A DNA stretch of 64,000 nucleotides from Spirochaetia bacterium. GTDB lineage: Bacteria > Spirochaetota > Spirochaetia > CAKZLE01. Positions 34,559 to 40,889 of this stretch are shown in pieces (within the stretch, counting starts at the first letter, position 1; each line of letters begins with the position of its first letter). The notes under the pieces are model-generated. The model saw only the letters and a list, made by a program, of their open reading frames with translations. It did no database searches and had not been told where the DNA came from. The stretch spans positions 928,001 through 992,000 of the forward strand of contig OY782041.1 in the NCBI GenBank assembly GCA_963677595.1, given 5' to 3'. A program made the translations under genes and the position numbers.

Positions 34559-34913
34559 ACGCTGCTTCTCCTCACACACCAAGATCTATCATTATCCATT
34601 ACTCAGTATCATCATAGCATAAATAGACAGGCAGCGTCAGCGATTATGAAGGAATGTCGTATTGGCGATTTACTTTTAGCATGTGAGCATGCTATGATTC
34701 CTCTATCAATGAGTAAATAGTCCGTATACGCAACTCGGGATCTGCATGTGCATGAGGGTAACGGGATGACTGTGTTCACAGGCCATCCATGAACATCCTC
34801 ATCCTTACTGACCTCGCTGCTTTCATGGCATGGTCGGCTTTCTACCGGCTGTGATCGTCTCAACCCGTAAGTCTCTTGAGGGGTCTTCCTTCAAGAGGGA
34901 AGGAGCTGCTTAC

Positions 34914-36242
34914 ATGCGAAGAACGATATGTATACTGGTGCTGGCGGCAATGGTCATGACGCTCATGACCGGCTGTGATGCTTTTGGCCTATTCGGAGGA
35001 TCCGGGACCGGTTCCTTCAAGATCGACGGGGTACTCAAGGCAGGCACTGACCGCGAGGTTACCGATACCCAGCTGGAATTATGGGTGATGCCGCTGTATA
35101 CGGGAAGCGATGAACCTATCGCCCATTCCAGTGTCTATGAGTTGAGGAAATATCAGGCGGCAGAAGACGGCAGCTATGCTATACCGATGGAGGAGATCCC
35201 CAATACGGCATTCGTCATCTTCATCGTTGAGACCAACGAGACTGCCGTCTATGACGTACTCGGATTCCTCAGCTTGAGTGTCGATGAGGCTGAAGCACTC
35301 TCGACCTTCCCGAATCCTGAAGAGATCATCGATACCGTCGAGTTCGGTATAGTGGAGCTTATGGGCGATAGTAGCTATTCCAGTTTCTCCGACAACACGC
35401 TCACTGACAACAGGAGTGCATTCACCTCTGCAACCTTCGATGAACTCCATGAGAACGTGGTCCTTCACAATACCGGGCAGATGGCACTGAACATCCTGCT
35501 GAACACCAACCCAGATCCGGAAGTGAACGACTATTACGCGATCGACCTGAGAATGTCCTATCGCACCCAACTTGGAAGTTCCGTCCAAAACTCAGCGCAG
35601 GTCGACTGGGCTTCCGACGTGAAACTGAGGATATACTCCAGTGATTCCACTTCAAAGGCTTCGTTATTCACCCCGGACGGGACCAACCTTAAGGGGGCTG
35701 GCGTGTTTGTAGACCCGTACGGGGAACAGAGTGCCGTCCAATACGAATTCCCCATCTCGTTCGAGAACTTCAAGACCCATGCCCAGCCTGGACAGTTCTG
35801 GGAACTGCGGGATGACAGCGGCACGGTCCTGGCAAGCTTCGACATGTCCGTTGCCATGCTGCTCGATGACCAGGATTACCCGATCATCCCGATCACCGAA
35901 CCCACCTATACCTTGGATGAGGGAGGTACTGTCATCGATACGGTGGACTTCAACTGGTTCTACTTCGAATCGGACGGTACCACGAAACACGAACTGACTG
36001 ATCCTGTTGTACTGGAAGAGATCATCGGGAAAACGGAGTTCTATCTCCAGACTGACACGACTGACCCAGTAGTCACCTATATGTATCGGGACCCGGGAGA
36101 AGGAGGTATGGGAGGCATGGAGGGAGATGTGGCGACCGCCTACTCCTTCAGCCCGGTCCTGACCGAAGCAGCATTCCAGAACGTGTCATTCGGGTACCGC
36201 TTCACCCTGTTCAGGTGCTCCACATCGTGGTGGGAAAACTGA
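34914..36242 (+). CDS. Acidic lipoprotein of unknown function
   Basis: RBS AAGGAG; MRRTICILVLAAMVMTLMTG-C lipobox. Confidence 0.8.
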   Translation: MRRTICILVLAAMVMTLMTGCDAFGLFGGSGTGSFKIDGVLKAGTDREVTDTQLELWVMPLYTGSDEPIAHSSVYELRKYQAAEDGSYAIPMEEIPNTAFVIFIVETNETAVYDVLGFLSLSVDEAEALSTFPNPEEIIDTVEFGIVELMGDSSYSSFSDNTLTDNRSAFTSATFDELHENVVLHNTGQMALNILLNTNPDPEVNDYYAIDLRMSYRTQLGSSVQNSAQVDWASDVKLRIYSSDSTSKASLFTPDGTNLKGAGVFVDPYGEQSAVQYEFPISFENFKTHAQPGQFWELRDDSGTVLASFDMSVAMLLDDQDYPIIPITEPTYTLDEGGTVIDTVDFNWFYFESDGTTKHELTDPVVLEEIIGKTEFYLQTDTTDPVVTYMYRDPGEGGMGGMEGDVATAYSFSPVLTEAAFQNVSFGYRFTLFRCSTSWWEN

Positions 36243-36314: not shown

Positions 36315-38945
36315 TTACTGAGAATCCGCCACATACGACCCAGCTTCAGGCTGATGCCTGTAGGCAGCCTTGAAGGAGAATTCCTGCAATCCACCCAACT
36401 CCTGGTAATAGGCTTCAAGGTCCGCTGCCAGTTTGGTCTCAAGCCGTTCAAGATCGTTATGAGCGAGCAGTTCATCCCAGAGGGTTCGTGAGAATGAGAG
36501 TATATTCAGGTCCTTCAGGTCTGCATGCTTCTGTTTGTCCGTGCGATCAGGTTTGGCATGGAACATGAAACGTTTGCGCTCGAACTTCTCGAAGGGGTTG
36601 GCAAGGATGCTCTTGCTCACTTTGGGCGCGGTATTCAGGTATACCTCCGTGTAGGGACAGCCCTTACGATCAACAGGCAGGTCATGGGCTAGCCTGTCCT
36701 GGTAGAACCGTGAATAGAGGTTGAGGAGCTCATCCAGGTTGCAGATCCCGTTCTCCTGATCCGCCAGGGCCAGGAATGAGAGCAGGAAGACCATCTTGTA
36801 GGAATAGGTGTAATCACCTTTCTCAATGAAGTCCCAGAAGTCCTGGTAGATCGTACTCTGGTCATGTTTTGCCAGGCCTCTCTCCTCCCGTATTCCCTCG
36901 ACCCTGTCAGGCTTGAAATAAGACAGGGTACTCCTCCCGAAGGGGATGGAAACATCAGCCGTCAGTTGGCCCTTTCGCATCCAGCTCTTGATGCTGCCGG
37001 TAGAGACGAACAGTTCCCGGGCCAGCTGCTCAGGGCTGAGGTAAGCCCCGTACTTCTCCTCGAAGGTGAAGATATCGATCTCCTCGATCTTCCTGATAGC
37101 TTCAGTCAACCCAGACAGGAACAGCTCCTCCCTAGTTTGATCATCATGGTTGAAGATATCAGCCCAGGGCTTATAGAGCTTGGTTCCGGTCAGGGCATGG
37201 ATGGACCAGGGGTTGGTGAAAGCCCCGTAGTTATCCACCACATCGATGATGTAGAGAGCCTCTTTCCCATCACACTTCCGGGTTCCCCGGCCGATCTGCT
37301 GGGTATAGAGTACCTTACTCATGGTCGGTCGTGCCATCACGATCACGGAGGTCTGGGGACTGTCCCACCCCTCGCTGATCAGGGAGCAGGAGGTCAGGAA
37401 CTGCAGTTCCTTCTTCTCATACTGCTCAAGGTATTGTGCAGACTTCTTGATCGTTCCCGCTACAGCTTCAGCTCTGATCCCGAAATTCCTCAGGCATGCT
37501 GCCATACGTTTCGCATGGCGGACATTCACACAGAATACCACACCCTGCTTACGCATCCCCTCCTTAGTGAAGTACTTCTGGATCACCTTGGCGATCAGTT
37601 CATCCCGCGAGTCTATGACGATGGATTTCTCCAGGTCTGTTGAGACATAGTCCTTCCCCATGAACCGTATCTCTGACAGGTCAAGGTTGCTCTTCACCCG
37701 ATAGGCATGGATTGGGGCCAGGATCCCTTGCAGGATAGCCTCTTTCAAGGTCATATCAGTCTCATACTGGCCGAAGACATCCTCCAACTTCCTTGCATCC
37801 AATCGCTTGTCCGTAGCAGTCATCCCGATCAGGAATTCGGGATTGAAATGTTGGATGGTCCTCTGTAGGGTTGGCGCCACAGCATGATGGGCCTCATCGA
37901 CCGCTATATAATCATAGTAGTCACCGGGATAGTTGAAATAGTGGAGTCCCATCCATGAGTAGGTATGGATATCAATGGAAGCAAGTTGAACCCCTGCACG
38001 GATAATGGCATCCCGGACCTGTTTCTCAAGATGCTTCGTCGGTATGAGGATGAGGACTTTTGCCTCCTCATTGGTCTGGGACAGCGCCTTCAACTCCTCG
38101 ATGAGGATCTGAGTCTTCCCCGTGCCTGTCGGGAACACGACCAAGGCACTCCTGAGACCTGCAGCCCTATCCTGCTGCAGGCGTTCGAGACACTGCTCCT
38201 GGTGGTCATATAACTTGAACTCCCTGTCAGCCTTGACATGGTTGATCGTCAGGAGATTCGTGCCGTCCCCAAAATAGCTCCTGATATCATCGATGAAGTT
38301 ATCTTTGTCGACCATACTTCCGATAGACCAACGATAGAGCTTGTTCCCATTCGTCACGAAAGAGTTCTGTTTTCGCAGCTGATCTTTATACCGTTCCTTC
38401 CCGATAACAGCTGGATGATGGTATTGCTCACCATTCTGCTCAACCGCAATATAGTGATGGGGTTCCTCCATCTCTATCAGGTAGTCATAGAACTTCTCAT
38501 TGCCGTGGATATCGAAGAATGAAGCTTCCTTGCAGATCTTATCGGAGGATCCCCTCCCATACAGGTCGATGAACGCATCCTCGAACTTGCATTCAGTCGG
38601 GGAAGAATCAGGGAATGCAAGAGCCCTGTCATAGGGACTGGACCTGAACTCAGCCACATCACTGGAATCAAGAGTAAAATCGACCAGGGACTGCAGGTCT
38701 CGTTCCGCCTCTTCAAGATCGGACTCATCCTCGATCACGAAACGGTAAAGGGAATCGAACCGATGCATCAGTTCGTTCTGGTGTCTCGTGTAGTCTGAGT
38801 AGTACAGTCTCCGGTCCCGGCAGATATCACGGTCGATGATGATGAGCCTGCTTCCCTGAATATCCTGAAAGCAATGGGAGGTGCGGAACGTACTGGTCTC
38901 AGTAAAGTCCCATCTCTTCAGCCATTCTCGTATTCTCTCAATCAT
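36315..38945 (-). CDS. SF2 (ResIII-like) DEAH helicase with N-terminal Vsr/DUF559-like nuclease region and HTH
   Basis: PTGTGKT, DEAH, MTAT, SEGWD, QQIGRGTR; YDY...AVEQNGEQYH; LARELFVSTGSIKSW HTH. Confidence 0.88.
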   Translation of the reverse strand: MIERIREWLKRWDFTETSTFRTSHCFQDIQGSRLIIIDRDICRDRRLYYSDYTRHQNELMHRFDSLYRFVIEDESDLEEAERDLQSLVDFTLDSSDVAEFRSSPYDRALAFPDSSPTECKFEDAFIDLYGRGSSDKICKEASFFDIHGNEKFYDYLIEMEEPHHYIAVEQNGEQYHHPAVIGKERYKDQLRKQNSFVTNGNKLYRWSIGSMVDKDNFIDDIRSYFGDGTNLLTINHVKADREFKLYDHQEQCLERLQQDRAAGLRSALVVFPTGTGKTQILIEELKALSQTNEEAKVLILIPTKHLEKQVRDAIIRAGVQLASIDIHTYSWMGLHYFNYPGDYYDYIAVDEAHHAVAPTLQRTIQHFNPEFLIGMTATDKRLDARKLEDVFGQYETDMTLKEAILQGILAPIHAYRVKSNLDLSEIRFMGKDYVSTDLEKSIVIDSRDELIAKVIQKYFTKEGMRKQGVVFCVNVRHAKRMAACLRNFGIRAEAVAGTIKKSAQYLEQYEKKELQFLTSCSLISEGWDSPQTSVIVMARPTMSKVLYTQQIGRGTRKCDGKEALYIIDVVDNYGAFTNPWSIHALTGTKLYKPWADIFNHDDQTREELFLSGLTEAIRKIEEIDIFTFEEKYGAYLSPEQLARELFVSTGSIKSWMRKGQLTADVSIPFGRSTLSYFKPDRVEGIREERGLAKHDQSTIYQDFWDFIEKGDYTYSYKMVFLLSFLALADQENGICNLDELLNLYSRFYQDRLAHDLPVDRKGCPYTEVYLNTAPKVSKSILANPFEKFERKRFMFHAKPDRTDKQKHADLKDLNILSFSRTLWDELLAHNDLERLETKLAADLEAYYQELGGLQEFSFKAAYRHQPEAGSYVADSQ

Positions 38946-38950
38946 CTCAT

Positions 38951-38992
38951 CTCTGCCGTCTCAAGGAACAGTCTCCTGGAGAATCCTCCCCT
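38951..38992. repeat. 42-bp direct repeat (orphan 3' end of PRA-PH-like gene)
   Basis: 38/42 identical to 40581-40622; minus strand reads RGGFSRRLFLETAEMR* with ATGA overlap to helicase start. Confidence 0.85.
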
Positions 38993-39818
38993 ATTCGCTC
39001 TCGGTGAAGAATGCGTTCTTGAAGAGGTCCATAAGCTGGTGTCTGTCATCGACTCCGGCCTTATCGAAGATGTTCTTGATGTGGGTCTTCACCGTCTGTT
39101 CCTTGATCCCCAACAGGTCGGCGATCTCCAGGTTCGAGCCTCGCGTCTCGCAGAGGGTCTGCAGTACATCCATCTCCCTCGGGGTGAATCCCATCTGGTC
39201 CGGATCGAGAGTCTCTCCCATCAGCTTGTCAAGTTTGTCCTTGACCTCCAGGAGACGGGTATGGTACTTCTTCGTGAGGCCGAGGTATCGGCTGAGCTCA
39301 TCGTAGAACATGATCAAAGCTATCCCAAAGAAGAACACCCCGAAGAGGATGACATACAACCCTCTCATGACCATGTTGTCAGAGAAGGCAGAGTACTCTA
39401 TGACCGCTGCCATGTAGATGATGAAGATGATCAGGCCTCTGGTGGCAAAAAACCTGTACTTGATCCCCATGAGCCCTGAGAGCATGATCAGGGCGAGCAG
39501 ATACTGGTTCTGGTGGTCATCAAGAGCCGAGAAGGTGGTGATCAAGATGAGAACCAGGAGCTGAAAGCCTTTGTTTATGGTATCCAGTCTGATAATGATA
39601 TTCTTTTTCGCTGTACCGAACCGGAGGCTCTCCCGGGGAATGAGGGAGAGGGTGATCATGATAAGACCGAAGGCGAGGATGAAGTAGTTCCACCAGGAGA
39701 ACCCTCCTCCCTGCTGCATGTCAACTTTGGCAGAGGTTGAGATGTAGTTCATAACGACCACTAATAACCCGATTGTTCCGAACAGCGTACCGATTATATT
39801 GTGTACTTTCCGCTTCAT
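38991..39818 (-). CDS. Membrane-anchored LuxR-family one-component regulator (~6 TM + coiled coil + HTH)
   Basis: Six hydrophobic segments; FTPREMDVL...SNLEIADLLGIKEQTVKTHIKNIFDKAGV. Confidence 0.9.
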   Translation of the reverse strand: MKRKVHNIIGTLFGTIGLLVVVMNYISTSAKVDMQQGGGFSWWNYFILAFGLIMITLSLIPRESLRFGTAKKNIIIRLDTINKGFQLLVLILITTFSALDDHQNQYLLALIMLSGLMGIKYRFFATRGLIIFIIYMAAVIEYSAFSDNMVMRGLYVILFGVFFFGIALIMFYDELSRYLGLTKKYHTRLLEVKDKLDKLMGETLDPDQMGFTPREMDVLQTLCETRGSNLEIADLLGIKEQTVKTHIKNIFDKAGVDDRHQLMDLFKNAFFTESE

Positions 39819-39823
39819 GCGTC

Positions 39824-40351
39824 TTAATCCTCCCAGAATGATTGAATATAGGTATCAGGATCTAGAATCGGTCGAAATAGATCCTGGTAGGGTGCGAACG
39901 CTTCCTCGAGCTCCCCAGCAAGGGTCTCATAGTCCCACTTCCCGCTCACAAGAGGGTTATACTTTCCCTGTTGCATATCTTCCTGTCTGTCACGATGGTA
40001 GTCTTCGAGCATATTCCGCGCGATGAGAACCACTCCGGCATTCGCGATGGCCTCATTGCCGGAACTGATCGTCGAGATCAGCTTAAGCCTGTGCATGATG
40101 TGGACATCATCGGTCTCACCGTGAAGGTAGTATTCTTTCGTTCCGGGGAGTATCGACAACAGATAGGTCATCATGTGAGTCAGTGCATCCCGCCTCGGAG
40201 CAGCTGAAGCTGCAAGATAAGGTATTGCCGTAATGAGAAGGAGGGTCTGGTTACCCAACAGGCTCTCTTTCCTGCCATCGGGCAGGTGTATGATGCCAGA
40301 CAGGTCATCAAGGATGGACTGCATCTCATCGAAGATCTCTGATCTGTTCAT
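39824..40351 (-). CDS. Hypothetical alpha-helical protein with prenyltransferase-like EDxxxDxxED..GKYN motif
   Basis: 175-aa ORF with G-rich RBS, 5 nt upstream of LuxR gene; function inferred only. Confidence 0.75.
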   Translation of the reverse strand: MNRSEIFDEMQSILDDLSGIIHLPDGRKESLLGNQTLLLITAIPYLAASAAPRRDALTHMMTYLLSILPGTKEYYLHGETDDVHIMHRLKLISTISSGNEAIANAGVVLIARNMLEDYHRDRQEDMQQGKYNPLVSGKWDYETLAGELEEAFAPYQDLFRPILDPDTYIQSFWED

Positions 40352-40525: not shown

Positions 40526-40551
40526 GGAACATACTGGACTCAGTATGTTCC
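40526..40551 (-). terminator. Hairpin after PRA-PH-like gene
   Basis: ggaacatactg-gact-cagtatgttcc perfect 11-bp stem. Confidence 0.5.
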
Positions 40552-40556
40552 CCCGA

Positions 40557-40889
40557 TCACGGATCCTGCTGATCATGCTCCTCTACCGTTTCAAGGAACA
40601 GTCTCTTGGAGAACCCTCCCCTCTTTTCCTGCTTACTGATCCTGATTTCCTCAAGTTCCTGGGCATCCGCACCATGCGTCTCCGCCAATGCTAACACCAC
40701 TTCCATGATATCAGCCAGCTCCTCCAGGGAGGGATCATCAAGGTATTCAGCAACCTCTTCCTTCAGCTTCTCAGAAAGAAACCTCACAAATTCCTGTTCA
40801 TCCAGTACCCTGGTTGTGCAGGAATTGCCGCTTGTTTCAATGATCTGTGGGATCCTGTCCCGAATGAGTTTGTTATAGGTCTTTTTCAT
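40557..40889 (-). CDS. PRA-PH/MazG-like nucleoside triphosphate pyrophosphohydrolase
   Basis: YNKLIRDRIP, KLKEEVAEY, EELADIMEV, KRGGF. Confidence 0.9.
   Translation of the reverse strand: MKKTYNKLIRDRIPQIIETSGNSCTTRVLDEQEFVRFLSEKLKEEVAEYLDDPSLEELADIMEVVLALAETHGADAQELEEIRISKQEKRGGFSKRLFLETVEEHDQQDP
40581..40622. repeat. 42-bp direct repeat, second copy (within intact PRA-PH-like gene)
   Basis: See 38951-38992. Confidence 0.85.

Follow-up and report, generated by a model that had tools for sequence, protein, structure and literature searches.

A mini isoprenoid-synthase-like protein paired with a membrane-embedded regulator in spirochaetes: a candidate two-gene signalling module

Described systems and the spirochaete locus

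In LuxI/LuxR circuits the synthase gene stands beside that of its regulator, 18-bp lux boxes lie upstream of the synthase and LuxR solos occur, and in borosin RiPPs such as OphMA the modifying enzyme is fused to its own C-terminal core peptide. The gene pair described here can be set beside both: compared with LuxI/LuxR, an isoprenoid-type enzyme replaces the acyl transferase and the sensing domain is membrane-embedded, whereas OphMA differs in its N-methyltransferase chemistry and has no signalling pair. ComQXPA, as the relevant parts of the 2014 census present it (PMC4008528), shares with the pair an isoprenoid-synthase-superfamily enzyme, a Trp near a C-terminus, a polytopic sensor with a variable membrane part and a GerE/LuxR-type output, and a locus without dedicated exporter or protease. 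By the same account the pair has two genes instead of four and an enzyme of 175 aa instead of 286-309, and lacks both the FARM motif and a separate 52-73-aa ComX (PMC4008528). In 61 of its 97 tandem loci the membrane domain and the output are fused directly, whereas ComQXPA employs the ComP kinase and the ComA regulator. The part of the census dealing with distribution gives no ComQXPA outside Firmicutes (PMC4008528), and the pair is found in Spirochaetota.

Other enzymes with the trans-IDS-like fold are also relevant, since all characterised prenyltransferases of this type target Trp, according to the section of a review that covers them (PMC13290415). PalQ/PalX and StheQ/StheX, in the portions of the two reports that describe them, share an all-helical fold with the mini enzyme and prenylate a terminal or near-terminal Trp (PMC10853753, bioRxiv 10.64898/2026.08.29.745113), and a palP kinase lies near the Pal cluster as the sensor lies near the enzyme here (PMC10853753). 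In the same portions, PalX and StheX are separate precursor peptides and PalQ and StheQ keep FARM and a Gln, both absent here, where the Trp is part of the enzyme's own chain (PMC10853753, bioRxiv 10.64898/2026.08.29.745113). As far as the StheQ account goes, FARM is a Mg-binding motif and the tail of StheX is predicted to be disordered (bioRxiv 10.64898/2026.08.29.745113), unlike the modelled tail of our enzyme, which is ordered; the Gln, which precedes the second motif by one turn, is tied to Trp recognition in passages on StheQ and Ord1 (bioRxiv 10.64898/2026.08.29.745113, PMC13290415). No description of an enzyme and membrane-sensor pair of the present kind was found in the open-access main texts searched, and we regard the module as real, widespread in spirochaetes and apparently undescribed.

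The window, that is the whole stretch of 64,000 nucleotides analysed (contig OY782041.1 of a Spirochaetia bacterium, positions 928,001 to 992,000), contains the following features:

39824..40351, minus strand: mini isoprenoid-synthase-fold protein, 175 aa (ORF), putatively both the signal synthase and its precursor
38991..39818, minus strand: membrane sensor-LuxR fusion, 275 aa (ORF, Pfam, AlphaFold model, Lys/Arg positive-inside pattern)
39303-39818, minus strand: six-helix membrane part of the sensor, residues 1-172 (model)
39024-39188, minus strand: LuxR/GerE HTH of the sensor, residues 211-265, joined through a long helix (Pfam)
39953..40003, minus strand: Asp-triad motif D117-x3-D121-x3-D125-x3-GKYNP, predicted Mg/prenyl-diphosphate site (alignment)
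39833..39835, minus strand: Trp173, third residue from the end, ~40 residues past NP (alignment, codon positions)
40581..40625, no strand: flanking direct repeat, upstream copy, the 3' end of the MazG-like gene, with a degenerate extension to ~40515
38951..38995, no strand: flanking direct repeat, downstream copy, keeping the original helicase-start junction, with an extension to ~38875
40526..40551, no strand: perfect 11-4-11 palindrome, candidate operator upstream of the pair, ambiguous as it lies inside the duplicated segment
40557..40889, minus strand: MazG-like gene, insertion target at its 3' end (weak Pfam match, E 0.009; empty sites)

Translation of 39824-40351 (minus strand) yields the 175-aa product that the initial annotation had described, with NMLEDYHRDRQEDMQQGKYNPL and a C-terminus ending in DPDTYIQSFWED, and the sensor ORF does begin 5 nt past the enzyme stop. 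The pair had also been taken for the cargo of an inserted cassette, and this holds. The segment is bracketed by a 45-nt direct repeat (copies 89% identical, spacing 1,630 nt), which in degenerate form extends to ~120 nt over the 3' end of the MazG-like gene and the start of the helicase. In both same-genus genomes searched (G001 and G002) the site is empty: the MazG-like gene is joined straight to the helicase and ~1,634 nt are absent, so the cassette is an insertion, carrying both genes and ~200 nt upstream of them. Both genomes hold more distant copies of the gene pair at other sites (L003, L004). No plasmid match was found for the locus, and no RNA holder is listed there. Elsewhere in the window, a 470-aa lipoprotein-like ORF without Pfam match (34830-36242, plus strand) is convergent with the helicase.

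The small protein and its terminal tryptophan

The proposal that the small protein adopts an isoprenoid-synthase-type fold is supported by its predicted model (pLDDT 93.8, pTM 0.89). When this model was structurally aligned (VIA) against 48,161 chains, all of the best 50 matches listed were, by title, chains of the isoprenoid-synthase superfamily, which we take to be trans-IPPS, terpene synthases, squalene-type or UbiA-type enzymes. The top matches, the MoeN5 prenyltransferase (aligned over residues 1-173 of the enzyme) and a Methanosarcina geranyltranstransferase, reach Z 8.4 with an rmsd of 4.3-4.4 over 163 aligned residues, a Z in the middling range for helical proteins by the tool's own scale; we therefore base the assignment on the uniformity of the list and the agreement of the motif. 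Foldseek returned no match at E<=0.001 for the same model, its highest TM-scores (0.45-0.48) being with trans-IPPS. In the model, the Asp i/i+4/i+8 triad and GKYNP sit at the end of helix 100-120, and the whole motif appears to resemble the second Asp-rich motif with a shortened loop, D117, D121 and D125 being the putative ligands of Mg and prenyl diphosphate. Because ~100 residues of the usual fold are absent, the prenyl pocket may be incomplete.

The protein belongs to a family without a name, comprising 350 clusters at 50% identity, with lengths of 86-227 aa in the best 150 of them; a word-indexed search gave only 3 close proteins. Genome and profile searches located it in 20 of 61 relatives, in 14 of 401 genomes drawn phylum-wide and in 91 of 401 Spirochaetia genomes. 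An alignment of 238 rows, from which rows below 140 aa or with at least 40 gaps were left out, shows near-invariant columns at P44, R88, G98, D125, N132, P133 and W173; D125, N132 and P133 are each kept at 98-99%, and D121 and D125 occur jointly in 204 rows. As for FARM, DDxxD is present within residues 55-95 in 7 of 238 rows only, H77/D81/R88 being conserved there instead, and position 114, whose register to StheQ Q212/N215 we infer from motif spacing, is Met in 76% and Gln in 4% of the alignment. With FARM absent, Met in place of the Trp-recognising Gln and 175 aa against ~300 aa, the membership of the ComQ family suggested at first does not stand.

Pfam and NCBIfam gave no family assignment for the enzyme, PF00348 is absent among 25 of the 26 families listed for 104 enzyme members, and a profile comparison of the family with the two host IPPS enzymes gave no match. 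Several leads were dropped: PDB sequence matches (trypanosome VSG, FTase alpha) were at chance level, the ESM Atlas gave lyase look-alikes of low recognition or nothing, and DCA couplings of W173 with R88, D125 and N132 were artefacts of invariant columns. At five loci (L021, L046, L066, L067, L119) the enzyme gene is disrupted by a frameshift, a stop or an IS insertion, and the adjoining sensor remains in 4 of the 5. A distant enzyme subfamily in another class (L022-L028, family f64) ends in GFWxx, its partners being membrane kinases with a CxxCxxxxCxxC insert in the ATPase domain.

Among Pfam families, DUF5685 (PF18937) comes nearest: 15 of 104 enzyme members match it weakly (best E 0.006), and profile-profile comparison gives E 0.0024 over 45 columns with a probability of 12%. 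All these matches lie far below the 26.7-bit cut-off of DUF5685, and the host genome has none. The two families share the motif D-x3-D-x3-D-x5-YNP; DUF5685 differs in its ~270 aa, in its retained first DDxxD-like motif and in a J-domain gene that adjoins in the 3 loci seen. The DUF5685 proteins at L126, L127 and L211 have the look of full-length isoprenoid-synthase-type proteins bearing two Asp motifs, and at L126 and L127 they are coupled to a J-domain protein with a Cys-rich tail. Close DUF5685 proteins carry an internal GVW ~45 residues past the motif (30 of 30 rows), so that a Trp there can be an enzyme residue; 4 of 4 distant DUF5685 proteins lack that Trp, and a terminal Trp does not run through the whole of DUF5685. 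For the role of the Trp in our enzyme, these observations point in both directions. A metagenome scan for DUF5685 was discarded since the search pattern itself contained Trp.

The near-terminal Trp noticed in the window proved to be conserved across the family, with 231 of the 233 residues aligned at position 173 being Trp. The last Trp falls among the final 5 residues in 96 of 108 complete loci, the chain ending 0-4 residues past it, against a background of 154 among 2,584 long ORFs of the host genome. The flanking positions 169, 170, 174 and 175 are highly variable (3.6-4.1 bits), the spacing from NP to Trp is fixed at ~40 residues, an aromatic residue directly precedes Trp in 167 of 238 rows, and the model gives an ordered tail (pLDDT 86-96). 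The tail had been expected to be hypervariable and appears not to be: its columns vary across the family with high entropy, and in close pairs, sampled between species, its identity is 0.77 against 0.82 for the N-terminus.

The sensor, its linkage to the enzyme and candidate operators

The partner had been described as a ~6-TM protein fused directly to a LuxR HTH, which is how the window's sensor is built, although across the family this is only one form, with 29 of 97 tandem sensors ending in a kinase. In the window, the only Pfam match above cut-off is the GerE/LuxR HTH (E 2.5e-12), kinase and receiver being absent; this HTH is found in 61 of 62 sensor members and matches the NarL HTH structurally (Z 11). 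The AlphaFold model presents six long N-terminal helices, the sixth extending to residue 201. Lys/Arg counts over 90 homologues place the N-terminus and loops 2 and 4 inside, a positive-inside pattern by which the HTH is cytoplasmic. The outer loops are short, and polar residues are kept inside the membrane helices (N24 in 69 and Q86 in 75 of the 90). No family match and no specific fold match were obtained for the membrane part, of which residues 1-81 were barely covered, a result that does not imply a new fold, and Foldseek found no significant match for the sensor model. These results lend no support to homology between the sensor and ComP. Over the 13 closest pairs, divergence is faster in the membrane domain than in the HTH (0.73 vs 0.92), which suggests diversifying ligands.

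Linkage was assessed over 109 distinct loci representing the stronger matches, the weakest and fragmentary ones being left out. As predicted, it is conserved: the sensor adjoins the enzyme in 100 of the 109 (97 tandem, 2 divergent, 1 convergent); the stretch fetched for another 8 contains no sensor, and the remaining one is uninformative. The outputs of the 97 tandem sensors are 61 HTH, 29 histidine kinase and 7 cut or short, the output type switching ~4 times along the enzyme tree, and translational coupling is tight in most loci. The two genes also appear to be inherited together, as had been anticipated, since for 83 pairs the enzyme and membrane-domain trees have 43 of 80 splits in common (29 of 39 among supported splits) and the Mantel rho of 0.30 is reached by 0 of 999 permutations; these measures speak for co-inheritance, not for matched specificity. 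Among the 401 Spirochaetia genomes, 85 have both genes, 6 the enzyme alone and 25 the sensor alone, tallies that assume an identical draw for the two genes.

Solo sensors had no enzyme upstream at any of 20 loci, fetched from 19 of the 25 sensor-only genomes, as would be expected for a shared signal. The host itself has two further solo sensors outside the window, tandem paralogues at G000:C1:228667-230376 with an IS110-like transposase upstream, and no synthase remnant was found upstream of them. Within ~1.5-2.5 kb of the 109 loci, no exporter, protease, precursor or other third gene recurs, and only 3 loci show a small Trp-ending ORF directly ahead of the enzyme, the three sequences being unrelated. 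The sole exporter-like neighbour seen is at L123, a divergent pair ~1.2 kb from a C39-peptidase ABC exporter-like gene. Six loci of one genus with the same neighbourhood (L108, L112, L114, L110, L111, L116) all have the enzyme with its Trp, and the sensor adjoins it in L110, L111 and L116 only; two genomes (G452, G620) have no sensor match genome-wide.

Of 57 HTH-type loci, 11 carry perfect 7-4-7 palindromes in the 300 nt that precede the enzyme gene (three from one genus, and one being the window's ambiguous palindrome), against a mean of 1.3 and a maximum of 3 in 30 shuffles; of the kinase-type loci, 0 of 27 do. The 18-bp boxes are clade-specific and track the HTH clades. In three genomes of two families (G006, G541, G717), the D box is confined genome-wide to two copies, both close upstream of the enzyme gene (control 0), in flanks that are unrelated between these genomes; G566 has one copy at the enzyme gene and one elsewhere, and G043 has a single copy elsewhere, none being found at its enzyme gene. 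The C box stands before the enzyme and again directly past the sensor in 5 of 5 genomes of one genus, only its position being informative, as its counts are no higher than control. In genus g11 (L275-L277), the second box precedes a small gene past the sensor; in L275 the product of this small gene matches the ThsB TIR (E 9e-6), so that a connection with phage defence is possible.

In G606 the E box is found at 7 sites (control 3), with unconstrained spacers that are near-identical throughout. Five of them are away from the enzyme promoter, intergenic and 63-140 nt upstream of genes: a prkA-DUF444 operon, a trypsin-like protease, an LVIVD-repeat protein with a divergent response regulator, one protein without assignment and one integrase. 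A search of G646 and G640 showed no E box at the enzyme gene, and neither the window's own clade (L002-L004, L085) nor clade B yielded a shared box. With one mismatch allowed, the window palindrome (40526-40551) occurs only once in the genome; an imperfect copy in the helicase start (38885-38910) indicates that it may be a duplication remnant. Between the two, four arm changes together make the upstream copy a perfect palindrome, and such perfecting could possibly reflect selection for an operator or a hairpin. A search for sigma-70 promoters gave none above chance. Taken as patterns in DNA, the boxes point to an autoregulating factor with a small regulon, to which the HTH would presumably bind.

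A proposed circuit and its alternatives

We consider it likely that the pair forms a synthase-to-sensor circuit with autoregulation. In the mechanism we propose, the small enzyme would attach a prenyl chain to the Trp near its own C-terminus, in cis or between subunits, unlinked proteases would release a short peptide bearing the prenyl-Trp, the six-helix membrane domain of the sensor would bind the lipid-tagged product, and the fused LuxR domain would then switch genes by binding the palindromes upstream of the enzyme. That the enzyme prenylates its own Trp is something we infer rather than demonstrate, and the whole circuit including this step is favoured tentatively, as one that may well fail. 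It is favoured because characterised trans-IDS-like transferases act on Trp and known substrates end near a Trp, and because there is no separate precursor and the chain stops just past an invariant Trp with free flanks. Counted against self-prenylation are the ordered, seemingly not hypervariable tail and the loss of FARM and Gln, and also that self-modification would be a single turnover. Still more guardedly, we see as possible a two-gene quorum sensing across Spirochaetota, in which a half-size prenyltransferase would be its own pheromone precursor, the sensor would read the released lipopeptide and solo receptors would listen. That the receptor, HTH or kinase-swapped, would bind an 18-bp box before the synthase and run a small regulon is a part of this wider reading which we hold with the same caution.

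If true, this would be a new signalling system in a phylum without peptide or prenyl signalling in the literature searched, and would extend prenyl-Trp signalling to diderm bacteria. The self-prenylating enzyme-precursor and the kinase-free membrane receptor would each be a new architecture, and the enzyme, at 175 aa and without FARM, would represent the isoprenoid-synthase fold in a much-reduced yet working form. The small size of the module, together with the predicted boxes as reporters, makes a rebuild in E. coli feasible and the proposal directly testable.

The same circuit could also run on different chemistry, in which the enzyme turns over many times and its product is a small lipophilic signal (a terpene, a prenyl alcohol, or prenylated indole or free Trp), with Trp173 as a lid or carbocation-stabilising residue, in a LuxI/LuxR logic with a membrane receptor. 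The fixed spacing from NP to Trp, the ordered and seemingly not hypervariable tail, the aromatic residue before Trp and the internal GVW of close DUF5685 proteins all suit this reading, as does the absence of protease and exporter nearby, and the short outer loops with N24 and Q86 in membrane helices would suit a membrane-soluble ligand. We nevertheless find it rather unlikely, as the chain ends just past Trp like the ComX, PalX and StheX substrates, the distant DUF5685 proteins without that Trp argue that it is not an ancestral fold residue, and the quicker change seen in the sensor's membrane domain suggests that the ligands diversify.

There might instead be no released signal, the small protein being a cytoplasmic partner that touches the sensor via its Trp tail and reports the isoprenoid pool, having either bound prenyl diphosphate or prenylated itself and anchored to the membrane. 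Tight translational coupling, the degenerate first motif and the lack of export genes agree with such a role, and congruent trees equally suit physical partners. This is improbable in our view: sensors without enzyme occur in 25 of 401 genomes and twice more in the host, one membrane domain serves both HTH and kinase outputs whose cytoplasmic parts differ, and the candidate targets are mixed (secreted or surface proteins, the prkA operon, an integrase, the TIR protein) and are not isoprenoid genes. Considerably more doubtful is an enzyme that prenylates an unlinked peptide or protein in trans, as ComQ and PalQ do, its own Trp being an autoinhibitory mimic. All characterised relatives, as far as the cited accounts describe them, act on separate substrates, but small Trp-ending ORFs upstream are present at only 3 of 109 loci and are unrelated in sequence.

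The initial annotation had cautioned that the W-E-D codons also form the RBS of the luxR gene, which is correct for the window, where TGGGAGGAT holds GGAGG 10 nt before the sensor ATG and TGGGAGG is the likely RBS, and does not extend to the family. In 94 tandem loci scored for the position of the Trp codon (2 were skipped), its distance to the sensor start ranges from -17 to +228 nt: it is 8-20 nt in 20 loci and 21-24 nt in 6, whereas it is at least 25 nt (25-228) in 48, and in a further 20 the codon lies less than 8 nt away or inside the next gene. These positions refute an RBS by-product with an incidental pairing as the family-wide explanation, to which we attach a negligible probability, and the Trp persists in five loci (L054, L069, L108, L112, L114) where the sensor is divergent or missing.
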